Of a stretch of 64,000 bases of DNA, positions 6,781-58,149 are shown piece by piece. Source of the stretch: a virus (lineage: Duplodnaviria > Caudoviricetes); IMG/VR virus record IMGVR_UViG_3300037851_000542, positions 32,001 to 96,000 of that record. The stretch is one strand, 5' to 3'. The notes beneath the pieces are model-generated. The model ran no database searches and was not told the DNA's origin. It saw only the letters and a list, made by a program, of their open reading frames with translations. The position numbers and the translations under genes are program-made. Numbering within the stretch: the stretch's first letter is position 1; each line of letters opens with the position of its first letter.

Positions 6781-7380
6781 TTAACTAGGCGATACTATAA
6801 GAGGAAGGAAGCAAGTCAGATTCTTGGATTGCACCCGAATACAATTAGAAGATATGAGAAAGAGGGAATTATCAACGGGATTAGGAATTCAGCAGGACAG
6901 AGGCTGCTTGATCTCGACTCCTATCTTGGCAGATCTAAAAGAAACAGAACAATCTGTTACTGCCGAGTCTCGTCGTCGAAGTAAAAAGACGATCTTGTCA
7001 GACAAATCCTCTACATGCAAGAGCAATTCCCAAACGCAGAGATTATCTCGGATGTCGGAAGTGGGATCAACTTTAAAAGAAAGGGACTTAAAGCCATTTT
7101 GGAATCAGCAATGTGCGGAGATAAGTGCACAGTTATTGTTGCCCACAGAGATCGTCTTGCGAGATTTGGCTTCGAACTCATTGAGTTTGTCCTTGAACAA
7201 AACGGTGGGAGGATCTTGGTTCTCGACAAAAGTTTACACTCACCTCAATCCGAGCTTACCAACGATCTGCTCGCAATACTTACCGTCTTTAGCTGCAGGA
7301 TGCACTGGCTCCGTAATTACCGTACAAAAATCAAAGAAGATAAAGCTCTTTCTAACAGCGGACCAAAGAAGAAAGATTAG
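6781..7380 (+). pseudogene. tnpA: IS607 TnpA (MerR-HTH + serine recombinase) with in-frame TAA at 6982-6984 and no clear start codon
   Basis: KEASQILGLHPNTIRRYEKEG HTH; ICYCRVSSSK*KDDLVRQ; VAHRDRLARFGFELI. Confidence 0.85.
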
Positions 7381-8449
7381 ACATTGGGAAGGGGTGTCCC
7401 GACTTCTTTTTAATAAAACCGTAGCTCTTTTAAAGGATGGTACGGTTAAGTCCTCTTGGAGGTCTATAAAGACCGATCTTATTACTTCCCTACCAGACTG
7501 GTCGCATACAGCGCCCTACCAAGTTAGATCTATAGCTATACGAGATGCTTGCTTAGCAGTATCTGCAGCAAAGAAAAAATTCCTGAAAACAGGGGAGTTT
7601 CAAGAAGTAAGCTTTCGAAGAAAGCATACAGCCCTGAAAAGCATCTATATCCCTAGCTCTGCGGTAAAACCAAGTAAAGTCAGAGCTAAAAGCGCCAAAA
7701 TCTATTTCCGCCTTTTAGGTGATGTTAGATTAGCTGAAAAATTACCAGAATCGCACGGAGACTGTCGGTTAGTAATCTCGAACGGAGAATACTTTCTGAA
7801 TGTATCTTACAAAGCAACCTTCTTACCTAACTCTAGCGAAAACCAAACGAAAGTTAGGCAGAGAGTAGTTGCTTTGGATCCTGGTATTCGTTCGTTTGTT
7901 ACTTTTTTCGCTGAGAACTCTTTTGGTAAGATCGGGCAAGGAGATATTGGGAGGATAGGGAGGCTTTGCTATTACCTAGACTCTCTTTATTCTAAAATTG
8001 CCAAAGCAACGTCTAAATCAAAATATCGAATGCGGAAAGCTGCTGCTAGAATTAGAAAGAAAGTCAGAAACTTAATCGACGAACTTCATCATAAGTCCGC
8101 TGCCTTTCTAACTTCAAATTACGATTTAATCCTTCTTCCTAAATTCGAAACATCTAAAATGGTTCAAAGAAGTTACAGAAAGATTAGATCCAAAACCGCC
8201 AGAGCTATGTTGACTTTCGCGCATTATAAATTTAAGATGTTCTTAAATCATAAAGCGAACGAAAATAATGCAAAAGTCTTAGAAGTTTGCGAAGCTTACA
8301 CTTCGAAAACTAAATCTTGGTCGGGCGAAATAGTAAAAAATCTCGGCGGCAATAAGTATATAAAAGAAAAAGATCTAATTTTAGATCGAGATTTTAACGG
8401 CGCTAGAAATATCCTCGTTAAAACTTTAAGCGGGTTTAACAAAAGTTAA
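7052..8449 (+). CDS. tnpB: IS607-type TnpB RNA-guided endonuclease (frame open back to 6824; start uncertain)
   Basis: VVALDPG (RuvC-I), VCEAYTSKT, LDRDFNGARNI (RuvC-III). Confidence 0.85.
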   Translation: MSEVGSTLKERDLKPFWNQQCAEISAQLLLPTEIVLRDLASNSLSLSLNKTVGGSWFSTKVYTHLNPSLPTICSQYLPSLAAGCTGSVITVQKSKKIKLFLTADQRRKIRHWEGVSRLLFNKTVALLKDGTVKSSWRSIKTDLITSLPDWSHTAPYQVRSIAIRDACLAVSAAKKKFLKTGEFQEVSFRRKHTALKSIYIPSSAVKPSKVRAKSAKIYFRLLGDVRLAEKLPESHGDCRLVISNGEYFLNVSYKATFLPNSSENQTKVRQRVVALDPGIRSFVTFFAENSFGKIGQGDIGRIGRLCYYLDSLYSKIAKATSKSKYRMRKAAARIRKKVRNLIDELHHKSAAFLTSNYDLILLPKFETSKMVQRSYRKIRSKTARAMLTFAHYKFKMFLNHKANENNAKVLEVCEAYTSKTKSWSGEIVKNLGGNKYIKEKDLILDRDFNGARNILVKTLSGFNKS

Positions 8450-10821: not shown

Positions 10822-11907
10822 ATGAGAGATCAATTAGAAGAGGTCACTGAGAGGTACGAGCAGGTTGGGCAGATGTTGTCAGATCCGTCTACTATCCACG
10901 ACCGTGAGAAGTTTTCGAGATTGTCCCGTGAGCATAAAGACCTAAAGGAAATTGTTGCCACCTTTACTGCCTTTAAGCGGGTAGCTGAAGAGATTGAGGG
11001 AAATCAAGCGATTATTAAGGAGGGTAGTGATAATGAGTTGGCAGAAATGGCTCAGCTTGAGCTTAAGGAGCTTCAAGATAAAAGTGAAGCATTGGAGGAG
11101 CAGTTGCATGTTCTACTGCTGCCAAAAGATCCTCTTGACGAAAAAAACGTAATTTTGGAAATACGGGCAGGTACTGGTGGAAATGAGGCATCTCTGTTCG
11201 CTGGGGAATTGCTCCGCATGTATCTTCGATATGCTGAGCACCGTGGTTGGAAAAGTGAGCTGATGGACAGTAACTCATCTGAAGCTAGGGGTTTCAAGGA
11301 GGTGTCAGTGCTGTTATCCGGTGAAAAGGTCTATAGTAGGTTAAAGTTTGAGGCGGGAGTACATCGAGTACAAAGAGTGCCGGTAACCGAATCGCAGGGC
11401 AGAATCCATACTTCTACGGTAACAGTTGCAGTGATGCCGGAGGCTGAGGATATAGAAGTAGACGTTTATGATAAAGACATTCGGGTTGATGTTTATCGTG
11501 CGGGCGGACCCGGAGGGCAGTGTGTAAATACAACTGATTCAGCAGTTCGCCTTACCCATCTTCCCACGGGAATAGTTGTAGCGATGCAGGACGAAAAATC
11601 GCAACACAAGAACAAAGAGAAGGCGATGCGAGTTCTGAAGGCTCGGATCCTAGCAAAAAAAGAGGAGGAGCAGGCTGCTGAACGACGGGATGAAAGGCGG
11701 AGTCAAGTGGGGACCGGAGAACGTTCGGAGAAGATCAGGACATATAACTTTCCACAGTCAAGAGTTACTGATCATAGAATTCATTTGACGGTACACGCTT
11801 TGGATCAAGTGCTTAATGGAAGCCTTGATCTTTTGCTTGAGCCTATTATTGTGGAGTCTAGGGCTCAAAGTATTTCGCAGCAGAAGCAGGGAATTACCAA
11901 TATCTAA
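10822..11907 (+). CDS. prfA: Peptide chain release factor 1
   Basis: EIRAGTGGNEA, RVQRVPVTESQGRIHTS (PxT = RF1), GGPGGQ, SEKIRTYNFPQSRVTDHRI. Confidence 0.95.
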   Translation: MRDQLEEVTERYEQVGQMLSDPSTIHDREKFSRLSREHKDLKEIVATFTAFKRVAEEIEGNQAIIKEGSDNELAEMAQLELKELQDKSEALEEQLHVLLLPKDPLDEKNVILEIRAGTGGNEASLFAGELLRMYLRYAEHRGWKSELMDSNSSEARGFKEVSVLLSGEKVYSRLKFEAGVHRVQRVPVTESQGRIHTSTVTVAVMPEAEDIEVDVYDKDIRVDVYRAGGPGGQCVNTTDSAVRLTHLPTGIVVAMQDEKSQHKNKEKAMRVLKARILAKKEEEQAAERRDERRSQVGTGERSEKIRTYNFPQSRVTDHRIHLTVHALDQVLNGSLDLLLEPIIVESRAQSISQQKQGITNI

Positions 11908-35266: not shown

Positions 35267-35368
35267 ATGATGTATTTTGTTATAGGATTTGTTACAGGAC
35301 TTGTTTTTCATAAATATAAAGATAAGCTATTAACTAAAGCTATATCCTTTTTAAAAAAGGATGAATAA
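35267..35368 (+). CDS. 33-aa membrane peptide coupled to S2 (TAATG overlap)
   Basis: MMYFVIGFVTGLVFHKYKDKLLTKAISFLKKDE. Confidence 0.45.
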   Translation: MMYFVIGFVTGLVFHKYKDKLLTKAISFLKKDE

Positions 35369-36297
35369 TGGAACTTAGCAATAGTAACGAAAACGAGAAT
35401 AAAATTAGTAATTTATCTGAAATACCAGTATTTGAGGTAGGATTTCAATCCCTATTGGACGCTAAAGCCTTTTATGGTACCTCGTGTGATGACTGGAATC
35501 CTAAAAGTGCCCCTTTTATCCTGTGTACAAAAACCAATAGACAGCCTAAAAGAAAGGGAAGATCAAAACATACTTATTTAATTGATTTAAGTATAACATT
35601 AAAGTCTTGGAACCGCGCCAAACAGTTTATTGAAAATACCGCATCTGCGGGTGGCAATTTTATGTTTGTAGGTACCCAACCAGAAGCAGGCAAGCTAATA
35701 CGAAGATGCGCTGAACAAGTGGAGGCGCTTCATGTGACAAAAAAGTGGAAGGGAGGAACTCTAACTAATTTAAAAATAACTCTAAACTCTATAAAAAGAT
35801 TAGCTAATCTAGAAAAACTTATTAAAAAACTAGACGATGCCGAAGCAGAAGGTACTTCAATCAATAAGAAAGAATTAAATTTATTAAAAAAAGAACAAAT
35901 TAAACTAGATGAACAGTATGGTGGAATAAGAAAGTTAAAAAAACTACCTAGTGCTTTAATAGTTTTTAACATGCTAGAACATAAAACAGCAATATATGAA
36001 GCTAAAAAATTAGGAATACCTGTTATTTGCGTATCTGATACTTTGGGTAATCCTGAACTCTCTGAATATTTTATAGCCTGTAATACTTCCTCTACCTCAG
36101 CTTTAAGACTCTTTATTATAAATATGTTTTCTGCTATTGAAACGGGATACAGAAAAAGAGACTTTAAACTATCCCAAGAAAATTTAATTAAAGAATTTGA
36201 TACCTTAGAAGAAGATACTAATATGGTAGTGAGTATTACAGCTACTGATATTCCAGTGGTGTACAAAAATAACAAAAACAGCTTGACTGTTAAGTAA
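35368..36297 (+). CDS. rpsB: divergent 30S ribosomal protein S2 (uS2)
   Basis: WNPK, YLIDL, FVGTQ, KKWKGGTLTN, GGIRKLKKLP, AIYEAKKLGIPVI..DT..NP. Confidence 0.85.
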   Translation: MELSNSNENENKISNLSEIPVFEVGFQSLLDAKAFYGTSCDDWNPKSAPFILCTKTNRQPKRKGRSKHTYLIDLSITLKSWNRAKQFIENTASAGGNFMFVGTQPEAGKLIRRCAEQVEALHVTKKWKGGTLTNLKITLNSIKRLANLEKLIKKLDDAEAEGTSINKKELNLLKKEQIKLDEQYGGIRKLKKLPSALIVFNMLEHKTAIYEAKKLGIPVICVSDTLGNPELSEYFIACNTSSTSALRLFIINMFSAIETGYRKRDFKLSQENLIKEFDTLEEDTNMVVSITATDIPVVYKNNKNSLTVK

Positions 36298-36681: not shown

Positions 36682-38943
36682 ATGATTACATTACCTAGTG
36701 GATCAATTCTAGTACAAAGGGTTATAAACAATGATTTTATTGATACTAAACTAGAATCTGATTTAATTCCAGTTTCTGTAACAGGAATTAATTATATCAC
36801 TGCTGGTATTTCAGGTTCAAACTTGCAGGAACTTCTAGACGACATTGTAATCACTTTAGCAACCAGCGGAAATCTAACAGCATACTCCGGTTATGCTGAA
36901 ACCAATTTTGTTACAGTAACTGGAACTCAAAACGTAACAGGTGCAAAAACATTTACCAACACACTAACATTTAGTGGCAATGTGCTTCCCGCCACTTCCG
37001 GAACTTTAAATATAGGATCTGATACTCTTGCAACTGCTAGTGTATTTACAAGAAATGTTTCAAGTGATGTAGGACAAAGTTTAACCCTTAAGACCGGCAG
37101 TGCTGGTGCTTTATGGGTTATATCCACAGATTCTATTGGAGTAAAATCATCCTTAAGTAGCTCTAACCAGGTTGGAGTAATAGGTCTAAATACTACTGAC
37201 GGTTCTGATAATGGCAGGTTAGAGTTAAGAGGTTATAGTGCTGATGGTTTTCCTAGCCCTTCTACAAGAGGAGGGGCTATATATTTAAACGGTAATGAAA
37301 ATAGCGGTACTGTCGGTATACTAGCAGGATCGTCTGGAAATATAGAATTTAGCACAGATAATACTGAAAGATGGAGAATTGCTACTAACGGGACACTGAT
37401 CAACCCGCAATCTGGTATATCAGCAATTCAATGGAGCGCTGCTAGTTCAGTTGGTAGAATTTTAGGGGCAACAAACAACACTGGACGGTTACAAATTGCC
37501 TCTGCTTCTTTGCCTGATAATACTTTGGGACCTTATATTGATATGAATGCAGCCACAGGGGACTGTAGTATTGTTGGTAAGACTGGGTTTGGAGTTGTGC
37601 TAAACACAGCAGGTGGAAACACGCTTACCGCGAACAGCAATGGGACTGTTAGTATAAACACTACTAATAACTCTGACGTGTTAAACGTACAAACCAATTC
37701 GCCCGATCAAGGAATAACAATAGACGGTTTTGGTAGTGGTACAAGAGCCCAACTTACTTTAAAATCTACAGGTACTACACAGGCTTGGATATCTTGTGAC
37801 AATGGGGCTTTTGCAACCGGGTATAATGGGGCTCTGATTTGTGCATCGACATCAGCAATAGTCTTATTTTCGAACGGTGCAAGTAGGTGGGTTGTTGATC
37901 CTTCTGGAAACGTTCTGCCATACGCCAATACTACTTATGATATCGGTAGTGGTAGTAATGCTTGCCGAATAGTACATACAAGAAATTTAATTAGTGATAC
38001 CGGACAAAACTTGGGTATCGAAGGAAAAAGTGAAATTTACTTTTACACAGGAGGAAGCTCTTCTATTAGGTGGGCATTTTCATCAGCTGGTCATTTTGTG
38101 CCTATCCTAAACCAAGGTTATAATATAGGAGTAGGCGGATCAAACGCTGTGGGATCTATTTTTGCTGTAAACTATTTTGGACCATCAGATATAAACAGAA
38201 AGAGAGATATATCTTCTTCTGATTATGGACTAAATGTTTTAAAACAAATTACACCTATAAAATACAAATATAAGAAGTTTAAATTAAAAACAGTTGACAA
38301 CAAACAGGTAGAAGACTTAGAAGATGAAGATACTCAAGGGGTCTCTAATAAACCACTACAGTTGGGGCTGAGTGCACAAGAAGTAAAAAATTTAATACCT
38401 GAGGCTGTAGTAGGAGATGAAGAAGATTTTAGCCTTTCTATCGACTATACTAAATTAATACCTGTATTAATTAAAGCAATTCAAGAGTTGGACTGTGAAC
38501 ATAAGCCAGTATTTCCTTGTCATTCTGGTTATAGTCCTGTTTTAAATGATATTGTTACTTTGAACTCTGAACTTAAAATTATTGCAAGTACTGAAGCACA
38601 ATCAACTACATCCTTGGGGCTTGTAGGAGAAATTTTAGGTGTAATGCCTTCAGGTACTACTATTGTAGATGCGTTTAATAATAGTTATATATACAACGGG
38701 GTAGTATCTTATAACCTCTGCTCATTAAACTTAAATGGTATTGTTAATAATATCAAAGTATCATCAGAGGGAGGTAACATTGTAGAAGGAGACCTTTTGT
38801 GTACCTCTAGTGTTAGCGGATGTCTTATGAGACAGTCTACAGATTCAGTAAAATCATATTCAATTGCACGGGCTCTAGTTCCAGTTACTTTTAGCGGTGG
38901 GGTCACAGTAATTTCAGGAGTAACAGCTAAAATGTTTAATTAA
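36682..38943 (+). CDS. tail fibre/spike with peptidase S74 intramolecular chaperone and extra C-terminal domain
   Basis: G/S/T/N-rich shaft; SDINRKRDI, GLSAQEV, IDYTKLIPVLIKAIQEL; later GDLLCTS..G. Confidence 0.8.
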   Translation: MITLPSGSILVQRVINNDFIDTKLESDLIPVSVTGINYITAGISGSNLQELLDDIVITLATSGNLTAYSGYAETNFVTVTGTQNVTGAKTFTNTLTFSGNVLPATSGTLNIGSDTLATASVFTRNVSSDVGQSLTLKTGSAGALWVISTDSIGVKSSLSSSNQVGVIGLNTTDGSDNGRLELRGYSADGFPSPSTRGGAIYLNGNENSGTVGILAGSSGNIEFSTDNTERWRIATNGTLINPQSGISAIQWSAASSVGRILGATNNTGRLQIASASLPDNTLGPYIDMNAATGDCSIVGKTGFGVVLNTAGGNTLTANSNGTVSINTTNNSDVLNVQTNSPDQGITIDGFGSGTRAQLTLKSTGTTQAWISCDNGAFATGYNGALICASTSAIVLFSNGASRWVVDPSGNVLPYANTTYDIGSGSNACRIVHTRNLISDTGQNLGIEGKSEIYFYTGGSSSIRWAFSSAGHFVPILNQGYNIGVGGSNAVGSIFAVNYFGPSDINRKRDISSSDYGLNVLKQITPIKYKYKKFKLKTVDNKQVEDLEDEDTQGVSNKPLQLGLSAQEVKNLIPEAVVGDEEDFSLSIDYTKLIPVLIKAIQELDCEHKPVFPCHSGYSPVLNDIVTLNSELKIIASTEAQSTTSLGLVGEILGVMPSGTTIVDAFNNSYIYNGVVSYNLCSLNLNGIVNNIKVSSEGGNIVEGDLLCTSSVSGCLMRQSTDSVKSYSIARALVPVTFSGGVTVISGVTAKMFN

Positions 38944-38946
38944 GTT

Positions 38947-38978
38947 AAAATAGCATAGCCCAAAGGCTATGCTATTTT
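38947..38978. terminator. bidirectional terminator between convergent genes
   Basis: perfect 14-bp stem aaaatagcatagcc/ggctatgctatttt with CAAA loop. Confidence 0.85.
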
Positions 38979-38982
38979 ACAC

Positions 38983-39465
38983 CTAAAATGGGGCATCCAC
39001 TTCCCAATGCTCATTATTAGATTCTGTATGATTTATTGGACCTTTTACAGTAGCAGTTCGATTCTCAAAAGGATTAATCTGCTGTGTGTCTGAATTACTA
39101 TTAACCTTCTTTTTTAAACTTTTAACTTCAAAATCAATATCAAAAGCTACAATCTCTACTCTTCTAATACTAGTTTCTTCTATTGCTCCGGTTTTAGTGT
39201 TTAGTGCATTAATTTTATAATTATAAGAGCTAAGTTTCCCTCTTAGTGTAATTTGATCACCTTTTGATAACAAGTTAGAAACTCTATCTGCTTGACTACC
39301 ATATACTACAATATTATGCCACTCAGTAGATTCTTGTTTAGAATCACTATTATATTCATTAGTTGCTAGTGTAAATGCTGCATAAGAAGTACCTTTAGCA
39401 GTTTCTTTGCGTACAGGATCTTTTCCTATACGTCCTGATAGTATTACAAAATTCATATTTCCCAT
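38983..39465 (-). CDS. ssb: Single-stranded DNA-binding protein
   Basis: MNFVILSGRIGKDP, FTLAT, TEWHNIVVYG, acidic ..APF tail. Confidence 0.9.
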   Translation of the reverse strand: MGNMNFVILSGRIGKDPVRKETAKGTSYAAFTLATNEYNSDSKQESTEWHNIVVYGSQADRVSNLLSKGDQITLRGKLSSYNYKINALNTKTGAIEETSIRRVEIVAFDIDFEVKSLKKKVNSNSDTQQINPFENRTATVKGPINHTESNNEHWEVDAPF

Positions 39466-39555
39466 TTTGCTGCCTATAAAAAAACAAGTTAATATAGGAA
39501 TTATATACGGATGTTTAGTTAACAGCAAGTGCTAATTTTGAATTAAATATACTAT

Positions 39556-40230
39556 ATGATTAACATGTCTATATTATTACAAAAAATTATTCAATTATTT
39601 AAAACAGTTTTTAGTATTACCACTGCTGCTGATCAGGAAGATACTGTAGGAACTGAGCAAGTTGGCATAGATATGCAACTAATTTATGCTCAATTTCCTT
39701 ATGCTAAAAAAGAAGATATAGACTTAAACTACCCTCTTTTAGTTAAAGCATTAAATAAACATGGAATTTTTAGTAGAGAAATGCTTATTTATGCGTTAGC
39801 TACTGTATCTGTTGAAGTTCCTAAATTTAAACCAGTAAAAGAAATACCTTCAAAATACTCTACTAAAAATAAACTAAAACCGTATGATTTTTCAGGATAC
39901 GTTGGAAGAATGGGAAATAAGGATCTTGAAATGGCTACAAAATACTCAGGAAAAGGACTTATTCAACTTACCGGCTATAATAACTACTGTGATCTTGATA
40001 AAAAACTTTTATTAAATGGTGAGTTAGTACAAAATCCAGATTTAGCCTTGGACGCTAAAATCTCAGCAGAGGTGTTAGCTATATACTTTAAAGACAGAAT
40101 TGACAGGGTAAAACAGGCGCTAATTAATAAAGATTTTGCTGAGTTAAGAAAAATAGTAAATGGTGGTTTTCACGGTCTTGATAAATTTGTAGCAAAATTT
40201 AAAGAATTAGATCAAGTTTTTCCTAAATAG
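39556..40230 (+). CDS. GH19 chitinase-like endolysin
   Basis: YALAT..VE, GKGLIQLTGYNNY, NPDL, RKIVNGG..GL. Confidence 0.85.
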   Translation: MINMSILLQKIIQLFKTVFSITTAADQEDTVGTEQVGIDMQLIYAQFPYAKKEDIDLNYPLLVKALNKHGIFSREMLIYALATVSVEVPKFKPVKEIPSKYSTKNKLKPYDFSGYVGRMGNKDLEMATKYSGKGLIQLTGYNNYCDLDKKLLLNGELVQNPDLALDAKISAEVLAIYFKDRIDRVKQALINKDFAELRKIVNGGFHGLDKFVAKFKELDQVFPK

Positions 40231-40685
40231 CCTTTAGTATATCTTTCTAGTTTTAAAAATGCTATCATACTTATATTATGAGCTTTGACCAAATTCCTTA
40301 CAAATTTATTAAAGAATTAAACTCTTTAGAGGATTGTTTTACCAAGCAATGGGTCATTAATTTCTATAACCATATAAAAAAATTAAACCTTTTATGGGTC
40401 TCACCTCATATAACTTTCGACGAGGATAATAATTCTTGTTTAGAATGGTGGTACAATAATAGAAAAGTTACAATATACTTAGAGTTAGAAAATAAACAAA
40501 TTACTGTGTTATTTTATGAAGAACCTGACCAAGATGCTATTTTAAAGTTGGATAAAATTACTGATTTAGTTTTACCTTTAAGCAATTTACAAGAAGTTAC
40601 TAGGATATGGTGTTGGTTTACATGTAAGTATAGGATTTAAATATACTATATACTATTAAGTATATAATTATAATGGGGTTTTTAT

Positions 40686-41363
40686 TTGATGTCTGTAGAC
40701 GACCGTGTAAATCTTCAAAAAGCTCTTTACACTATATCACATGAGTTTAAAAATGACATTATAACCCTGCAAGGTTTAATAACTATTCTTGCCCAAAAAT
40801 ATGAAAAAACCTGGGACGAAGACGATAAGGAAAATATAGACTTGTTATTTGAGTCTATTAAACACCAAGAATCATATATTCAAAGTTTGCTAGATTATTC
40901 TAGAGTCAATACTAGAGGCAGACCAAGCTCTATAAAGTCCATACAAGAGCTTATAGCCATAGCGTTAAAGTCTATAAACAACGAACAAGTTAAAATTGAA
41001 TGTAACTGTAATACTAAATTAAAGCTGGACAATGCTCAATTTACAAAAGCTCTAAGTTGTATAATTATTAACTCTATTCAGTACTCTAACTGTAACCCCG
41101 TTATTATTAACTTTAATTGTGATTCTAAAGAAAATGACTATATATTAAAAATTAAAGATAACGGTACTGGTATAGATGATAAGTTTAAAGATCAGATATT
41201 CTCTGTGTTCTCTCCTGGTAAGAATTCGGTATCAGGAATAGGTATGGGACTTGCCACGGTAAAAAAGATAGTAGAGAGGCAAGGAGGTTCTATTTCTTAT
41301 GATTTTAGTACCAAAGAGTTTATAATAATTTTACCAATTGCATTGTGTTACCAAGATGTCTAA
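40686..41363 (+). CDS. sensor-less histidine kinase (HisKA + HATPase)
   Basis: ISHEFKN, INSIQYS, IKDNGTGI, GIGMGLATVKKIVERQGG. Confidence 0.85.
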   Translation: MMSVDDRVNLQKALYTISHEFKNDIITLQGLITILAQKYEKTWDEDDKENIDLLFESIKHQESYIQSLLDYSRVNTRGRPSSIKSIQELIAIALKSINNEQVKIECNCNTKLKLDNAQFTKALSCIIINSIQYSNCNPVIINFNCDSKENDYILKIKDNGTGIDDKFKDQIFSVFSPGKNSVSGIGMGLATVKKIVERQGGSISYDFSTKEFIIILPIALCYQDV

Positions 41364-41796
41364 TGATTTAATAAATATCTTAATGGTAGAAGACAGCAAA
41401 GCACATGTAAAGCTTACTCAAGAAGCTTTAAAAAGGGCTAAACTTATAGCTAATTTTTACTATGCTAAAGACGGAGAGGAAGCATTAAATTTTATTTATA
41501 AAAAAGGCAATTATTCAAATGCCCCTACACCAAATTTAATACTACTTGATTTAAAGTTACCTAAGTACAGTGGTAAAGAAATATTAAAAATACTAAAAGA
41601 GGATGAAGATTTAAAGTCTATACCTGTAATTATTTTAACTACTTCATCGGCTATACTAGACATAGACGAGTCTTATAAAAGCCACGCTAATAGTTATATT
41701 ATAAAACCTATATCTTTTGAAGGATTGATTCAAACCTTAATGGGTCTAAATAATTTCTGGTTTGTTTTATCTACAAAACCACCAGTTAATGATTAA
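41356..41796 (+). CDS. single-domain response regulator (Rcp1/CheY-like)
   Basis: VEDS, LILLDLKLP, IPVIILTTS, ANSYIIKP. Confidence 0.9.
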   Translation: MSNDLINILMVEDSKAHVKLTQEALKRAKLIANFYYAKDGEEALNFIYKKGNYSNAPTPNLILLDLKLPKYSGKEILKILKEDEDLKSIPVIILTTSSAILDIDESYKSHANSYIIKPISFEGLIQTLMGLNNFWFVLSTKPPVND

Positions 41797-42982
41797 TTAC
41801 ATAATATTTGTATCTTTACTATTATGCTTGCTGTCATACAGGTCAGGTTATAAAAAAGGACTAGACTTAAAAAATAAAACACTAAGTGAGAATCGTCTCT
41901 TAATAGAGGAATTGAATTTTAGGTTAAATTTAATCTTAAATGTTTCTAAAGTAGGTATATGGGTACTAGACATAAAAACCAGAGAATTAAATTGGAACAA
42001 GGAAATGTTTGCAATTTATGAACTAGACCCTAATGAATCCGCTTGTCAAAGTAGATGGTCAGCATCTCTTCTTCCTGATGATTTAGTATTAACATTAGCT
42101 CAGTTAGAAGACAGCATAGCTAATACAAAAGAATTCAATACTTCTTTTAGAATTGTTACAAAAACTGAAGGAATCAGGCATATAAAAGCAATTGGAAATT
42201 TTCTCATAGACGATGATGGACTAGCTTATAAAATGGTAGGTATCAACTACGACAATACAAGTGAAGAAGTATTTAAAAGTAATATTTTATCTTTAAACAG
42301 GGAACTTTTAGATTTTACCTCGATTTTGAGCCACGATCTTCAACAACCTACAACAATAGCTTCTATGTACTTGGATCTTTTGGGCGCTAAAAACCCATAT
42401 TTAGACCCAGACAGTCAGGAGTATTTTAATTATGTTAAAACTTCTTTGAACGAGATAAGTTGCATTTTAAAGGATCTAATAGATCTTATACGTGTAGATA
42501 ACTTAGAAAAAAACCAAGAAGTTAACAAGTCAGAATTATTAAATTTAATAAATTTTAAAGAGATCTTAGAATCTTTAAATTACAACAAGAATTTGATTGA
42601 AATAGTTCTACCCAAAGAAGATTGTTACTTAAGTATGTGCAATAGAGATATTAAATCTCTTTTTACTAACTTAATATCTAACGCTATAAAGTTTTCTGAC
42701 CATAATAGAAAAAACACAATAACAATTACCTCTGATTGTTTAGATAATGGTAAAGTTTTTACAGTATCAGATAAAGGCATAGGTATAGACTCTAGGCATT
42801 TAAATGAGGTAATTAAGCCTTTTTTTAGAGTATACAGTTCTGAGGACTATCCAGGTACAGGGTTAGGTTTAGCTTTATGTGATAAAATAGCAAAAAAATA
42901 CGGAGGTACCTTAAGAATTGAATCTAAATTAGGAGTAGGTACAGATATAATTATAAAATTTCCTTGTCAAGGTACTATATAG
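41789..42982 (+). CDS. membrane-anchored PAS-domain histidine kinase
   Basis: N-terminal TM; PAS (GIWVLDI..WNKEMFAIY..FRIV..MVGINYD); LSHDLQQP; NLISNAIKF; PGTGLGLA. Confidence 0.9.
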   Translation: MINYIIFVSLLLCLLSYRSGYKKGLDLKNKTLSENRLLIEELNFRLNLILNVSKVGIWVLDIKTRELNWNKEMFAIYELDPNESACQSRWSASLLPDDLVLTLAQLEDSIANTKEFNTSFRIVTKTEGIRHIKAIGNFLIDDDGLAYKMVGINYDNTSEEVFKSNILSLNRELLDFTSILSHDLQQPTTIASMYLDLLGAKNPYLDPDSQEYFNYVKTSLNEISCILKDLIDLIRVDNLEKNQEVNKSELLNLINFKEILESLNYNKNLIEIVLPKEDCYLSMCNRDIKSLFTNLISNAIKFSDHNRKNTITITSDCLDNGKVFTVSDKGIGIDSRHLNEVIKPFFRVYSSEDYPGTGLGLALCDKIAKKYGGTLRIESKLGVGTDIIIKFPCQGTI

Positions 42983-42987
42983 AGATA

Positions 42988-43407
42988 ATGCCTAACTCTG
43001 ATTTAAACTCTAAAGATAAGATAGCACTAGCTCGATTAGAAGAGAAGTTTAAAAACCTATCTGAATCTCATAAAGATTTAAAAGAGAGGTATAAACTAAC
43101 TCAAGAAGATCTTATTAAGAAATCAGAAGAAATATCTGAGGCTCATATACAAAATAAACTTTTAGAAAAAGAATTAAAAAGAAATGTAGAGCTGCTGTAC
43201 AAAGATTTTGATGCATTTCTAGATAATATGCAGAAAATAGAGTTAAGTCATAACCTGTTTGAAAAAAAAGTAACAGAAGAACTAAAAACAATAAAAGAAA
43301 AGGGATCTGAAACATTTCTCCTATATGGAAAAATGGCTATGTATTTTATAGGCGGGGTTTTTGCAACAGTGTCTACATTTATAGGTATAGGTATTCTTAA
43401 ATTCTAG
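42988..43407 (+). CDS. coiled-coil protein with C-terminal TM (holin/XhlA-like architecture)
   Basis: heptad-rich body; terminal hydrophobic helix; lies between endolysin cluster and tail fibre. Confidence 0.45.
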   Translation: MPNSDLNSKDKIALARLEEKFKNLSESHKDLKERYKLTQEDLIKKSEEISEAHIQNKLLEKELKRNVELLYKDFDAFLDNMQKIELSHNLFEKKVTEELKTIKEKGSETFLLYGKMAMYFIGGVFATVSTFIGIGILKF

Positions 43408-43482
43408 AGTGGTTTTGGTGAGATTAAATACTATAGAAACGGTATCTATTCACACTTTTAACCACTTTTAGAGGTCTTTATA

Positions 43483-45519
43483 ATGATTCAATTAAACCCT
43501 GTTTTAACCTCCCAGAATGGAAAGCTTTTAGTTGGGGATACCAATAGTACTGGAAAATTTACAAATTTAAGTTATTCAGAATCAGGTAGTAATTCTAACT
43601 TAATATCTTCTGGAACTTTTTTATTAGGTACCACAGGATCTAATGAGTTCAGAATACAAACTAATGGATCTTTAAAATGGTCTGTTGGGTCAAATGGTGC
43701 GCTTAGTGCTGCGGTCGCTGCCAATATAACGACTGGAGGTAGCGTTCAAAGTCCTACTTTAGAAAACATTGGATTCACAGACTTAAACTTAAACTCTAAT
43801 AATGCTGGTATAAAATTCTATACGTCCAACACTAGCCGTTGGGAAATGAGTAGCGCTGGTAATTTACTCCCTGCTACTTCTGGGACTTTAAATATTGGAT
43901 CTTCGTCTAATCCTATTCAAGTTATTACGGGTAACAATTTAAGTTCTTCTCCAGCACAGCAATTAAATCTTCAAATTGGTGGATCTACAAGGTGGATAGT
44001 AGAACCTAATAGCGGAAATCTTCAGCCCAATGGTGCTAATACTTACGGTATTGGAGGAGGATCAAGACCTTGTAATCAGGTGTGGACAAGAGTACTAACC
44101 TCTGATGCTGGGCAGAATCTAGTTTTAGCTGAAAACGGTGCTGCTAGGTGGACACTAGAGGCAGGTGGAAACAACTTAACTGCTGTCGGAGGGGCTGTAA
44201 TTAAATCTAGCAATAGTAATTTATCTTTACAAGGAAACTACTCATTTGGTTCTACAGGGGCTGCTATAGAACTTTTAAATAATGGACCTTTAAATTTAGT
44301 AGCTCAAGATGTAATCAGCATTTATAATGCGGGCGGGCTTAGATGGACTTTTAATACCTCTGGTGATATTGTACCTGCTAGTGGTTCTCAAAGTATTGGT
44401 ACAAATTCTTCTGCAATACTTTCAACTTATACTAGAAATGTATCCTCCGACGGCACTAATAATTTAAATTTACAAGTAGGAGGGAGCACAAAAGTATACA
44501 TAACTAATGCTGGAGATCTCATTGCAGGTGGAATTAGCACTACTTATTTAAATATAGATAACACTTTAACCTTAAACGATAATAATTTAACCTCAACTGG
44601 AGATTTAATTTTTAATAATGGGCAGTGGTTAAGATTATACGCTAGCGGTACAGAACGCTGGAGAATGTTTGGTAATGGAGAACTTTTAGCAGTACAAGAA
44701 TCTGTGAATCATTTTTTTGGTACTTTTAGCAATACGTCCTTATTCTTTAGAACAAACAATCAAAACAGGCTTTATTTAGAAGCAAACGCTAGTAACTTAG
44801 TAGGGGTAGGTTCTGTAGGTTTAGCTAGTAATGGTGGGGTAGTTACACTAGGATCAACAAATGATGGTAATCAGGATCCAAATAGCGCTACTATTATTAT
44901 AACTGGATTTGGAGGACCTTCTCCTAAAACTTTAGCTAGATTTACAAAAAATTCAATCAATCTTCAATGTCCTGATCGGGCTGGATTTAGCGGAGATCGC
45001 TTTTGGCTTAAAATTTATCACGGTGCTCAAGAGATGTGGGCATTTTATAACGCTATTGATGATTCATTAGCTGATGGAATGTTTGCCCCTCCGGTAACAA
45101 ACGCTTTTAATATTGGTCACCCTTCTCACAGAGTTAGAGATATACATACACAAGCAATAACAATATACTCTGACGAAAGAGGTAAAAATACAATACAACC
45201 TTCTACATTAGGGTTAGACTTTATTAATTCATTAAATCCAGTATCATATAAAATGAATGTTGGTAGGAATCAAACACTTGAAGAAGAAGATGGTACTCCT
45301 ATAATAGTGCCAATATCTGGAGTAAGAACACACTGGGGATTACTAGCCCAAGAAGTTAAAGCTGTAATTCCAAGTGGTGTAGATTTTGCGGGATGGGTAC
45401 TAGCAGATCTTGAAGACCCGGATAGTCAACAGTCTTTACGGTATTATCAATTTATTTGTCCTTTAATTAAAGCAATTCAGGAGCTGACCGCAAGAGTAGA
45501 GTCTTTAGAAAATCCTTAA
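43483..45519 (+). CDS. tail fibre with C-terminal peptidase S74 chaperone
   Basis: YSDERGKNTI..LGLDFINSLNPVSY..HWGLLAQEV..PLIKAIQEL. Confidence 0.85.
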   Translation: MIQLNPVLTSQNGKLLVGDTNSTGKFTNLSYSESGSNSNLISSGTFLLGTTGSNEFRIQTNGSLKWSVGSNGALSAAVAANITTGGSVQSPTLENIGFTDLNLNSNNAGIKFYTSNTSRWEMSSAGNLLPATSGTLNIGSSSNPIQVITGNNLSSSPAQQLNLQIGGSTRWIVEPNSGNLQPNGANTYGIGGGSRPCNQVWTRVLTSDAGQNLVLAENGAARWTLEAGGNNLTAVGGAVIKSSNSNLSLQGNYSFGSTGAAIELLNNGPLNLVAQDVISIYNAGGLRWTFNTSGDIVPASGSQSIGTNSSAILSTYTRNVSSDGTNNLNLQVGGSTKVYITNAGDLIAGGISTTYLNIDNTLTLNDNNLTSTGDLIFNNGQWLRLYASGTERWRMFGNGELLAVQESVNHFFGTFSNTSLFFRTNNQNRLYLEANASNLVGVGSVGLASNGGVVTLGSTNDGNQDPNSATIIITGFGGPSPKTLARFTKNSINLQCPDRAGFSGDRFWLKIYHGAQEMWAFYNAIDDSLADGMFAPPVTNAFNIGHPSHRVRDIHTQAITIYSDERGKNTIQPSTLGLDFINSLNPVSYKMNVGRNQTLEEEDGTPIIVPISGVRTHWGLLAQEVKAVIPSGVDFAGWVLADLEDPDSQQSLRYYQFICPLIKAIQELTARVESLENP

Positions 45520-46287: not shown

Positions 46288-47259
46288 GTGACAAAAGAAT
46301 ACAAATTTAAAAACTACTATGAATCTGAACCTCAAGTAGATAAAATACTTTATGACGAATCTAAAGAAAAAGTATTAAAAGCTTTTGCTAACATTAGTCA
46401 AACCTATGCAAGAAAACACGTTAGACCAGGTATTGACTATGAAGATCTGTATAATGAAGCCCAACTTGGAGTTTTAGAAGCTATTGAGTACTTTTCTGAT
46501 CCAAGTAAGGTAGAAAAAAAATATCCATTCAAGCAATATGTTCTTTACAAAATTAGGGAAAGAACTTATCAGTACTGCTTGCGTAATGCTATAAAAATAA
46601 AAACTCCTTATTATATTCAGCGCGGTTCAAAACATGTAGCTCAGATTACAACTTTATTAAAAAATGCTCCGGTTGCTTTTCAAATTCTTGGTAAAGAGGA
46701 CGTTAGTGATAGTGATATTAGAGAGTTTTTATATAATGAGAATGAAAGGTTACCTTTAAAATCTGATGAGTTTATTCGTGCTCAAATAAATAAAAATCTA
46801 ACTACAGATCAGTTTAATCAGGTTTATGATAACGTAGTAAATCATAAAAGAGGAAGTGCTCATTCTTTTGTAAAGAAAAACTTAACTGATGTTGGTAAAA
46901 TATTACATATAAAAGAAAAGATCTGGTATAATGCTACAAGTAACAATATGCCATTTAGTAGAGTAATATCTTTAATATTAGAGGCTCGTAGTGCCAGATC
47001 CAGCCACGATTCTGTTTTTTGTGGGACTATAAATGGGCTCTCAGAAAAAAATATTATTTTTGCAGAAATGGTAAAACGGGGCAGGGAAGTTTGTGGGACT
47101 AAAAATTTTGATATATTTTTATCAAATAAATACTTAAATAAAACCTATAAAGAAATCTCAGTACTTTATAACGTCCCTAAGAATGATATAACTGAAATTA
47201 TAAAAAGGTGTATAAAAAGTCTAAAAGAAGACGACATAATAAACGAATTTAACGATTAA
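46288..47259 (+). CDS. sigma70-family RNA polymerase sigma factor
   Basis: region 2: YEDLYNEAQLGVLEAIEYF..FKQYVLYKIR; region 4: KTYKEISVLYNVPKNDITEIIKRCIKSLK. Confidence 0.8.
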   Translation: MTKEYKFKNYYESEPQVDKILYDESKEKVLKAFANISQTYARKHVRPGIDYEDLYNEAQLGVLEAIEYFSDPSKVEKKYPFKQYVLYKIRERTYQYCLRNAIKIKTPYYIQRGSKHVAQITTLLKNAPVAFQILGKEDVSDSDIREFLYNENERLPLKSDEFIRAQINKNLTTDQFNQVYDNVVNHKRGSAHSFVKKNLTDVGKILHIKEKIWYNATSNNMPFSRVISLILEARSARSSHDSVFCGTINGLSEKNIIFAEMVKRGREVCGTKNFDIFLSNKYLNKTYKEISVLYNVPKNDITEIIKRCIKSLKEDDIINEFND

Positions 47260-50651: not shown

Positions 50652-51722
50652 TTAGTAAATAATTTCCCCTGATGGGCTCTCATGCCCGAGAGCGAAAATA
50701 AGAATATTCTTTGCCGCGTTTACATCTCTTTGATGCTGACTTCCACAAGAGGAACACTCCCATTCTCTTACCCCTAACGCACTTAGTCCACTCGGTCCTG
50801 TTTTTTGAAGACAATGCGAGCAAGTTACGGTAGAGTATTTTTCGTTGGTTACTCGGAAGTCAATACCAAGCTTTAGAGCTTTATATGCAAGCATTGATTT
50901 AAATCGCCCCCAACTGGCGTCTAAAACGGACTTTGCCATTTTAGTTTTTACAAGTTTAAGGGCATTTACGTCTCCAACGAAAATTTGTTTATTCTCCTGC
51001 GCTAATTTAGTGGTAGCTTTATGCAGGAAATCTTTACGCACGTTCTTAATTTTGGCGTAGATTTTAGTGACTTGTTTTTTCTTTCTAGCTCTTTGGGCTT
51101 TAGCGAGTTTTTCTGCGTATTTTGACAAAACTTTGGGATTTTCTATTGTACTACCATCCGAGCATGTTGCTAAGGTCTTAAGACCTAGATCAATCCCTAT
51201 GACTCCTTGCCCTAAATGCTTAGCCTGAGGTTCAACTTCACAGTTTAGGTTTATGTACCATTTTCCCTCGGAGTCCTAATTAAAAGAGGCTGTCTTAAGT
51301 TTTCCTTGAACCTCTCTGGACTTCCAGAATTTAAATTTACGTTTAAGGTAAACTACCGAGTCACCTTTAAGTTGAATACCTTTTGAGTTAACAGGTATCC
51401 ATCCTAAGTTTCTTTTGTGACTTCTCCATCTTAACTTAGGCTTCTTTAAATTGTTTCTCTTAGCTATAAATTCTCTAGCTATCTCATTGATAGTAGTGGA
51501 GCTAAGTCCTAATTCTTTAGAAGATCCTACTGTTAGATAATTTAAATCGTATTCCGATATCCATCTTTTATTTCCACCTGCAGATCTTCGATCAGCGGAT
51601 TTTTTAGATACCTCATTGCAGTAATTCCATACAAAGTTCACTGATTTTGCCTTACAATTGAGCAGGTTTAAATGCGTAGAATCTTTTATTCGGAATTTGT
51701 AAGTAATCATTGCTTTCGCCAT
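50652..51722 (-). pseudogene. tnpB: IS200/IS605-type TnpB split by one in-frame TAG (51276-51278)
   Basis: read-through gives TASFN*DSEGKWYINL..GIDLGLKTL..FVGDV..TCSHC..CSSCG..RDVNAAKN in one frame. Confidence 0.9.
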
Positions 51723-58122: not shown

Positions 58123-58149
58123 TATCGGCAAGGTAGGTTCAATACTTTA
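58123..58149 (-). promoter_or_regulatory. sigma28-like promoter
   Basis: minus strand cTAAAgt, 16 nt, GCCGATA; upstream of 57760..58083. Confidence 0.8.

Follow-up and report, generated by a model that had tools for sequence, protein, structure and literature searches.

A conserved, putative two-component operon resident in a freshwater jumbo-phage lineage

The window analysed here is a 64,000-nucleotide stretch of a virus of the Caudoviricetes (bases 32001-96000 of the 259,994-bp IMG/VR record IMGVR_UViG_3300037851_000542, CheckV completeness 95%), and the system under study is a block of four genes, downstream of the phage endolysin gene, that encodes two histidine kinases (HK1 and HK2), a stand-alone receiver (RR) and a small membrane protein (ORF139). 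By its sequence, the block is an intact, conserved and functional-looking phage-resident two-component operon, made of ordinary parts in an uncommon setting. With a confidence only a little above even, we read it as a functional accessory two-component system that entered the ancestor of a freshwater jumbo-phage clade in a single event, its likely source being a bacterial operon of the kind that combines two kinases with an Rcp-type receiver. An earlier note on this region, made from the DNA letters, had proposed a phosphorelay that times lysis or rewires host signaling, and its claims are taken up below where the evidence bears on them.

Two Histidine Kinases and a Stand-Alone Receiver

The four genes of the cassette are as follows.

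40689..41363 (longer ORF at 40686), plus strand: HK1, a soluble, sensor-less class-I histidine kinase of 224 amino acids with DHp and CA domains only (Pfam)
41356..41796 (longer ORF at 41338), plus strand: RR, a stand-alone receiver of 146 amino acids, Rcp1/RcpA/RcpB family (Pfam Response_reg)
41789..42982 (longer ORF at 41762), plus strand: HK2, a membrane-anchored PAS_3-HisKA-HATPase_c sensor kinase of 397 amino acids (Pfam; transmembrane scan)
42988..43407, plus strand: ORF139, with an N-terminal coiled coil and a single C-terminal transmembrane helix (tail-anchored), the last gene of the operon (transmembrane scan)

HK1 matches the Pfam models HisKA (1.4e-7; 31.9 bits, cut-off 26.9) and HATPase_c (1.1e-13; 52.1 bits), and neither Pfam nor the transmembrane scan detected a sensor domain or a transmembrane helix in it; its best matches in the Protein Data Bank (PDB) are HK853-type kinases (1e-14). 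His18, which lies in the H-box SHEFKN, is kept in the window and in three related loci (L003, L004 and L108, where L-numbers are locus labels), and N128, D157-x-G159-x-G161 and G183-x-G185-x-G187-L, which represent the N, G1 and G2 boxes, are invariant. The family is very small, with four members among 1.84 billion protein representatives, after which scores fall from 224 to 170 bits and the matches are generic kinases. Three cysteines of HK1 are invariant in five lineages. Cys105 and Cys107 make up a CxC where the ATP-binding domain begins, and Cys144 follows some 37 residues further on; a metal or redox site built from them may provide this sensor-less kinase with its input.

RR matches Response_reg (1.4e-17, 64.3 bits) and no other Pfam domain, as expected from the earlier description of a receiver without an output domain, and its residues E12, D13, D65, T95, K117 and W135 are invariant in an alignment of 10 sequences. 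The resemblance to Rcp1 that had been noticed in it also holds: its best PDB matches, which span residues 3-144 and range from 1e-26 to 2e-37, are Rcp1, RcpA, RcpB and bacteriophytochrome response regulators (5te9, 2e-37; Rcp1, 1i3c, 4e-32; RcpA, 1k68, 6e-30; also 1jlk, 5ic5 and 1k66). Many metagenomic proteins that JGI names Rcp1 are ∼50% identical to RR.

HK2 carries PAS_3 (4.2e-11, 43.4 bits), HisKA (8.5e-8, 32.6 bits) and HATPase_c (1.5e-23, 83.8 bits), all of which pass their cut-offs, and one N-terminal transmembrane helix. Its H-box SHDLQQP and its N, G1 and G2 boxes are intact, and these motifs are kept in four lineages (the window, L002, L003 and L004). The phosphotransfer residues that the earlier note took to be intact are therefore present in all three proteins, as SHEFKN in HK1, SHDLQQP in HK2, and D65 and K117 in RR. 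The PAS domain of HK2, inspected by eye, lacks the LOV-type NCRFL motif. Two kinases that are only 23% identical are not recent paralogues, and that origin was rejected. A phytochrome system of the Cph1 type was also set aside, since neither kinase has a Pfam match to a GAF, PHY or other phytochrome domain. None of the cassette proteins reaches an NCBIfam equivalog cut-off (PhoR/PhoB, WalK, EnvZ and others; the phoR_proteo score is 118.9 bits vs 334), and PADLOC gave no meaningful match to a defense system for the cassette, on which outcome a role in defense or anti-defense was dropped.

With the gene starts of public gene callers, HK1 and RR overlap by 8 nt (as ATGTCTAA), RR and HK2 overlap by 8 nt (as ATGATTAA), and ORF139 starts 5 nt past the HK2 stop; the overlaps had been noticed before at the start and stop codons. 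Because of the two overlaps, the 5-nt gap and the lack of a terminator-like site (none was found in 38900-43600), the genes can be regarded as a tightly coupled operon. The G+C content (GC) of the cassette is 0.28-0.31 and that of its third codon positions (GC3) 0.19-0.27, compared with a GC3 of 0.18-0.24 in the other phage genes checked and 0.44 in the phage gene for release factor 1 (RF1), which bears out the phage-like composition claimed earlier. Across the 259,994-bp genome, HK1 and HK2 are the sole kinases, and RR is the sole receiver.

The Cassette Is Conserved in Related Phages

The earlier note had proposed a check of synteny in related phages. Relatives were found by protein look-ups and make up four further lineages, three of which keep the order lysin-HK1-RR-HK2-ORF139 at 33-83% amino-acid identity. 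The short contigs L002, L108 and L109 were counted as one lineage (L002 shares its source, one JGI metagenome, with L109, and L108 is from an ENA assembly); L003, L004 and L110 are contigs of 29.6 kb, 21.6 kb and 4 kb, respectively. In the L002/L108/L109 lineage, identity to the window is 82% for HK1 (the close relative L108), 71% for HK2 and 83% for ORF139 (both L002), and the N-terminus of RR is present. In the remaining cross-lineage comparisons, values are 41-45% for HK1, 58-61% for RR, 38-41% for HK2 and 33-44% for ORF139, with HK1 ranging over 31-45% between divergent lineages. L003 has the order uS2, fiber, single-strand DNA-binding protein (SSB), lysin, cassette, fiber, two small genes on the minus strand, a gene comparable in size to the sigma-factor gene and a methyltransferase, and L004 shares the uS2, lysin, cassette and fiber part of the window's synteny. 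No match to the cluster DNA was found among 50,697 phage records, and no relatives were returned by single-protein IMG/VR scans with HK2, RR and a 126-amino-acid neighbor gene, or by a scan of metagenome contigs with the ORF139 alignment.

All catalytic motifs are invariant across the window and its syntenic relatives, and the ratio of nonsynonymous to synonymous substitution rates (dN/dS) is 0.05-0.42 where dS could be estimated (dS was saturated, and four comparisons gave no dS estimate). In a quick tree, the phage receivers form one clade inside the Rcp family (SH-aLRT 97), a grouping that is consistent with a single acquisition. The synteny, the dN/dS values, the receiver clade, the tiny HK1 family and the phage-like GC and GC3 together indicate one old acquisition of the cassette, followed by vertical inheritance under purifying selection.

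The fourth lineage, L110, has the order fiber, SSB, lysin, HK1-like gene and ORF139 homologue, and RR and HK2 are absent. Its HK1 homologue (L110:2758-3453) has Glu in place of the H-box His and a degenerate DHp domain, with the ATP-binding domain kept. Since the histidine and the receiver were lost together, we conclude that the HK1 histidine would be functionally tied to the phage receiver, a pattern seen once only. Absence or decay in relatives, which the earlier note named as a sign against its proposal, is thus, among these relatives, confined to L110, with three lineages intact.

The losses in L110, along with gene turnover in the slot beside HK1, are what would be expected of passenger DNA decaying without function, and the possibility that the block is a chimera of assembly or binning, and not phage DNA, is raised by the many public "phage" records that match the kinases and are bacterial contigs. 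MW462191.1 is one of these; it carries bacterial housekeeping genes, and was discarded as a phage precedent. Matches to HK2 found by tblastn in the phage collection are likewise mostly unannotated fragments or bacterial-looking records (two were inspected). We nevertheless consider both explanations very unlikely, because the ORFs are intact, their catalytic motifs are invariant at 38-71% identity, dN/dS is well under 1, and the composition is that of the phage. Moreover, independent assemblies from several metagenomes contain the block, in every case with phage genes (uS2, fibers, SSB, sigma factor, methyltransferase) on its flanks. The DNA of the window's own cluster is present in two freshwater metagenome runs.

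The sensory parts of the block vary among the lineages. The slot between lysin and HK1 holds a small gene, ORF120, in the window, a minus-strand BLUF gene in L003, and an unrelated minus-strand ORF in L108, and it is empty in L004 and L110. The BLUF gene of L003 (L003:8786-9217, minus strand) is short, lies directly upstream of HK1, and scores 86.8 bits with Pfam BLUF (cut-off 25); its BLUF residues, by reading, are Y6 in LIYIS, Q48 in FFQYLEG, and W89/M91, and its PDB matches to BLUF proteins are at ∼1e-8. No BLUF gene occurs in the genome to which the window belongs. The window's HK2 has a single PAS domain, compared with two PAS_3 stretches in the L003 and L004 orthologues (531 and 552 amino acids). 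About 9 kb upstream of the cassette, L004 encodes an extra histidine kinase with an ethylene-receptor-like ETR1_N membrane domain (L004:1-266, minus strand), which runs off the locus. In L002, the first ∼12 codons (TVTGVQTCALPIS, L002:1-40) look like a sequencing or assembly artifact joined to the HK2 fragment.

Related Cellular Operons and Known Systems

The closest cellular receivers, 51-54% identical to RR, sit in two-kinase operons. Those of the Elusimicrobia metagenome-assembled genomes (MAGs) GCA_002412545.1 and GCA_003530275.1 (L112 and L113) have, like the phage, a kinase, a single-domain receiver and a second kinase (PAS-kinase, receiver, REC-PAS-kinase), and that of GCA_020629475.1 (L111) has two kinases and a receiver in the order kinase, MASE6-kinase, receiver. 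In contrast to the phage cassette, the upstream kinases of these operons have PAS sensors, which HK1 lacks, and the downstream kinases start with a REC domain, where HK2 starts with a transmembrane helix; they contain no ORF139-like gene and have no lysin or fiber neighbors. These operons are uncharacterized too.

HK1 was compared with a set of eleven kinases and receivers from cellular and Microcoleus-phage operons, and matched best (28.5% identity, E 4e-23) the kinases whose genes immediately precede those of the closest cellular receivers; it has in common with them a YSR-x-x-TRG motif, identified by reading. On the strength of these two features, HK1 appears to be the cognate kinase of the receiver, and it looks like a kinase derived from such an upstream gene after loss of the sensor. 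Neither HK1 nor HK2 exceeds ∼35% identity with a cellular kinase, and their identity to the cellular kinases in the comparison set is ∼25-32%.

Among characterized systems, the pairs Cph1-Rcp1 (Synechocystis) and CphA/B-RcpA/B (Calothrix) and the bacteriophytochrome pairs are the nearest to RR, which matches their receivers over nearly full length at E 1e-26 to 4e-32, including the C-terminal FW motif. As in Rcp-type pairs, RR is encoded directly beside HisKA kinases, and both the H-D-L-Q-x-P of HK2 and the YSR..TRG of HK1 resemble the kinases that accompany Rcp-type receivers; solved bacteriophytochrome kinase modules are among the weaker PDB matches of HK2 (E ∼1e-10). Unlike Cph1-Rcp1, the cassette is phage-encoded and has no phytochrome, GAF or PHY domain, and its inputs are a PAS_3 domain in HK2 and none in HK1.

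Other viral sequences also carry kinases next to receivers, and PHROGs include kinase and receiver families. Microcoleus phage My-WqHQDG (OR578706.1) has a tight or overlapping cassette of a PAS-kinase and two REC proteins, and HisKA kinases lie beside single-domain receivers in the large IMG/VR contigs L114, L115, L117, L118/L119, L120 and L121. In L115 the set comprises a REC protein, a PAS kinase and a receiver, and in the unrelated huge-phage contigs L118/L119 (344-348 kb) DHFR is followed by a HisKA kinase and then a single-domain receiver. These viral cassettes differ from that of the window in having one kinase instead of two, other neighborhoods (primase/helicase; DHFR), and no linkage to ORF139 or a lysin gene, and the My-WqHQDG receiver is 31% identical to RR and forms a separate long branch. 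They are independent acquisitions and are uncharacterized, and some of the contigs are only putative phages. Pairs of a kinase and a receiver seem to be a recurrent feature of large phages.

Clostridioides difficile phage phiCDHM1 reportedly carries agrB, agrD and agrC, a peptide quorum-sensing set of the HPK10 type with a sensor kinase and no response regulator. It is thus similar to the phage studied here in bearing a sensor histidine kinase, whereas the window holds a complete HisKA-type kinase-receiver set. The jumbo-phage survey of Iyer et al. discusses only a divergent receiver domain, unrelated to kinase systems. Full-text searches of the literature turned up, as judged by title and abstract, no complete phage two-component system, and a search for the exact phrase gave no paper. 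The earlier statement that the arrangement has no characterized phage parallel agrees with that result, but needs qualification in view of the two-kinase cellular operons and the viral kinase-receiver cassettes described above.

Probable Expression With the Endolysin Gene and a Possible Link to Lysis

The endolysin gene, the variable slot and the copies of a promoter-like motif in and beside the block are as follows.

39556..40230, plus strand: endolysin with a GH19-like muramidase/chitinase fold, 224 amino acids (phrog_181 endolysin, 6.9e-25)
40278..40640, plus strand: ORF120, no family, in the variable slot between lysin and HK1 (ORF call)
39543..39556, plus strand: promoter-like motif TTAAATATACTATA, directly upstream of the endolysin gene and overlapping its first ATG (motif scan)
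40637..40650, plus strand: second copy of TTAAATATACTATA, 49 nt upstream of HK1, a candidate promoter of HK1-RR-HK2-ORF139 (motif scan)
43424..43435, plus strand: TTAAATACTATA, a shorter version of this motif, 59 nt 5′ of the second tail-fiber gene (motif scan)

Together with the cassette, these genes confirm all six ORFs described in the earlier note, namely the endolysin, a small ORF, the sensor-less kinase, the receiver, the transmembrane-PAS kinase and the coiled-coil/transmembrane ORF. The endolysin matches 9ms7 (PWe2 endolysin, 9.4e-9) and 4ok7 (3.8e-7), both GH19-type phage endolysins, and scores 18.2 bits with Pfam Glyco_hydro_19, under the 25.5 cut-off. One of its glutamates aligns, in one pairwise alignment only, with the Glu of what we take to be the HE motif of 9ms7. 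The transmembrane scan gave no transmembrane helix or signal-anchor in it, and its orthologues in L003, L004 and L110 are 50-59% identical. ORF120 has no match in Pfam, PHROGs, NCBIfam or PADLOC, and its Atlas neighbors are unnamed viral clusters; since the slot is variable and the protein has no family, it was dropped as a sensor or part of the system.

The motif TTAAATA(TA)CTATA occurs 15 times in the genome, vs 4.25 times in shuffles, and about 8 of the copies sit 13-113 nt upstream of ORFs. Copies precede the lysin gene, HK1 and the second fiber gene at distances of 13-59 nt, and in L003 and L004 the core ACTAT(A/G)T again precedes both the lysin gene and HK1. A scan of the cluster region for sigma-70 promoters gave nothing above chance. 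PHROGs annotate none of the genes that follow the other TTAAATA..CTATA copies, which leaves the motif without a temporal class. A different motif, TAAAG-N16-(C/T)CGATA, was found at 775-32889 and at 58149 of the window with no good copy from ∼33 to 58 kb, which places the cassette outside this class; the TAAAG-N16-CCGATA class precedes genes in the first half of the window, including replication-type genes. Because the first motif is common to the lysin, HK1 and fiber genes, and because no terminator-like site lies inside the block, HK1-RR-HK2-ORF139 is probably one transcription unit that is expressed with the lysin and fiber genes, late in infection.

This layout raises the question of whether the cassette could be a lysis-timing circuit, in which phosphorylated RR (RR~P) or HK1 acts on ORF139, as a holin or XhlA-like protein, or on the endolysin, so that lysis is triggered or delayed by the state of the cell. 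In each of the five lineages, the signaling genes are bracketed by the endolysin gene and the ORF139 orthologue; an upstream motif is common to the lysin gene and the HK1 operon; and the transmembrane helix of ORF139 (residues 119-137) makes it the only membrane protein of the block besides HK2, the endolysin having no helix or anchor of its own. Orthologues of ORF139 are found directly 3′ of HK2 in L002, L003 and L004, and directly 3′ of the degenerate HK1 in L110. In the window, ORF139 is 2.8 kb from the lysin gene with the signaling genes between; only the degenerate HK1 intervenes in L110, which has kept lysin, HK1-like gene and ORF139 together without RR and HK2. The same arrangement can be turned around, since the loss of RR and HK2 from L110 argues that lysis does not need them.

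The identity of ORF139 does little to strengthen the case. Its neighbors in Atlas (language-model) features are phage clusters that include DUF7201 and, with a coiled coil and C-terminal transmembrane helix like its own, DUF2951 and XhlA; this is a lead only. On these features it resembles XhlA of the Bacillus PBSX lysis cassette in being small, with an N-terminal coiled coil, a single C-terminal transmembrane helix and an endolysin gene nearby. Searches of Pfam (to E values of 5), PHROGs and NCBIfam gave it no holin, spanin or XhlA family, however, and no XhlB-like holin adjoins it. XhlA belongs to Gram-positive hosts, and a transmembrane helix at the extreme C-terminus without a charged tail is a non-canonical holin layout. 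A structure prediction that set two HK1 chains and one RR against a pair of ORF139 fragments (residues 1-115) as the partner scored 0.00; it was run without controls, gives no verdict, and is evidence neither way. The position of the block is itself weak evidence, because it lies between two tail-fiber genes, in a cargo hot spot. Late operons beside lysis and fiber genes are common sites of cargo insertion, as with stx upstream of S-R-Rz. The description of this region as a lysis region is thus weakened, since it depends on the one credible endolysin and on ORF139, which has no holin family, and nothing beyond gene position links the signaling genes to the timing of lysis. In our judgment a lysis-timing role is unlikely.

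Genome Context and Probable Host

The genes around the cluster are of the jumbo-phage type, with two Peptidase_S74 tail-fiber genes, SSB, a diverged uS2 and a sigma-70-family factor; helicase, clamp loader, RNA ligase and release factor 1 genes are also present in the window. Those that flank the block are listed below.

36682..38943, plus strand: tail-fiber gene of the upstream flank, 753 amino acids, C-terminal Peptidase_S74 chaperone domain (Pfam PF13884, 1.2e-7; PHROG tail spike/fiber families)
38983..39465, minus strand: single-strand DNA-binding protein, 160 amino acids, public gene call (Pfam SSB, 1.4e-22)
43483..45519, plus strand: second tail-fiber gene, downstream flank, 678 amino acids, Peptidase_S74 (Pfam, 2.3e-11; phrog_4636, 1.6e-20)
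46288..47259, plus strand: sigma-70-family factor, 323 amino acids (phrog_351, 2.2e-8; TIGR02937, 1.6e-9, under its cut-off)

A fiber gene in the place of the upstream one is also found in L003, L004 and L110, and SSB adjoins the lysin gene in L003 and L110 too. The downstream fiber gene is not at this position in L002, where the ORF139 orthologue is followed directly by two minus-strand genes. The end of the cassette is followed, after ∼3 kb, by the sigma-factor gene; in the corresponding place L002 has an ORF that resembles sigma region 2 by reading, and the L003 gene that agrees in size and position is a homology candidate only. The diverged uS2 gene is found at window 35368-36297, L003:2590-3579 and L004:5753-6709, and because its relative position matches in all three, it is most simply regarded as a long-standing gene of this phage clade. 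The phage genome also contains a full transposase gene (phrog_506) and a short OrfB_IS605/TnpB-like fragment, at window 6824-8449 and 50652-51128.

The best clue to the host is the RF1 gene at window 10822-11907, whose GC of 0.46 stands out from the genome value of 0.33. It is 84.5% identical in nucleotides and 89% in amino acids to RF1 on a 7-kb, 47%-GC contig of a Lake Mendota Bdellovibrionota MAG, the remainder of which has no match to this phage and is not phage-like, and the next-best RF1 matches (56-63%) are mostly from Bdellovibrionota MAGs. The gene is a recent transfer from host to phage, and we propose, with moderate confidence, that the host is a member of the Bdellovibrionota. A cyanobacterial host, suggested by the Rcp1, BLUF and ETR1_N themes, was rejected in favor of Bdellovibrionota on this evidence.

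A host so rich in two-component proteins, with 8-33 receiver matches in each candidate MAG, could offer many targets for a takeover of its signaling, in which the phage kinases add phosphate to host response regulators or remove it from them, or RR drains phosphate from host kinases or binds a host target, for instance a motility or developmental switch, so that the host is reprogrammed during infection. Single-domain receivers serve as phosphate sinks or as allosteric regulators of kinases, as in the CheY paralogues and DivK, and for this pathway the phage has neither a DNA-binding nor an enzymatic output of its own. Yet there is no sign of mimicry: the best match to RR in the five candidate host MAGs is only 39%, so that the cassette is not a recent copy of a host system, and the kinases are no closer than ∼35% to cellular ones. 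Kinases and receiver are inherited together and translationally coupled, as expected for a closed cognate set, and the joint loss of the HK1 histidine and RR in L110 suggests that the partner of HK1 is the phage receiver, not a host regulator. We therefore regard takeover as unlikely.

Discussion

Several observations weigh against a functional, phage-resident system and should be set beside the conservation described above. The DHp domain of HK1 is atypical in having no Pro at His+5, and the L003 copy has Asn at His+1 and is not detected by Pfam HisKA. HisKA kinases usually need T or N at His+4 for phosphatase activity, and HK2, by reading, has neither, because of which any division of labor between HK1 and HK2 is a guess. 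As judged from L110, which has no RR or HK2 and has Glu for the HK1 histidine, the two-component system is accessory and seemingly dispensable, and HK1 may have a function there that needs no phosphotransfer. The candidate host MAGs, lacking a close RR homologue, give no hint of a host partner, and confidence in the host is itself moderate because it depends on a single transferred gene.

With these reservations, domain architecture, conservation and selection suggest a mechanism of which every step is inferred. HK2 would be anchored at the inner membrane by its N-terminal helix, and its cytoplasmic PAS domain would read an intracellular or membrane-proximal signal, so that the phage probably senses the state of the infected cell. 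HK2 would then autophosphorylate on the histidine of SHDLQQP and pass the phosphoryl group to Asp65 of RR. HK1, which has no input and has an H-E-x-x-N motif, could act as a second kinase and/or a phosphatase on RR, and would set the level of RR~P. Since RR has no output domain, it would act by protein-protein contact, like other Rcp1-type and single-domain receivers. The operon would be transcribed from its own promoter-like element, and probably expressed together with the lysin and tail-fiber genes, and the net effect would be to couple late events of infection, or host physiology, to the state of the infected cell. A more elaborate version, which we think quite unlikely, would make the cassette a sensory island of the clade, in which HK2 and HK1 converge on one receiver, BLUF, a blue-light/redox sensor, and ETR1_N are added in relatives, and the whole reads the energy, redox or light status of a Bdellovibrionota cell and gates lysis through ORF139 and the endolysin.

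Phages are known to sense host signals through single receptors, and single two-component genes appear in lists of virome genes. What seems to be new here is a complete kinase-receiver-kinase system that, by the comparisons above, has been inherited, selected and remodeled within a phage lineage, and for which we found no prior description. If the host does belong to the Bdellovibrionota, as seems probable, it would be an uncommon one for a jumbo phage. The relatives provide natural variants for functional tests, with one or two PAS domains, a BLUF gene, or a His-less HK1 without RR and HK2. If the system is active, it would provide a small and complete system in which to study how Rcp1-type single-domain receivers produce their output, and would mean that a lytic jumbo phage brings its own sensor-to-response pathway into the cell, which bears on the timing and course of infection.

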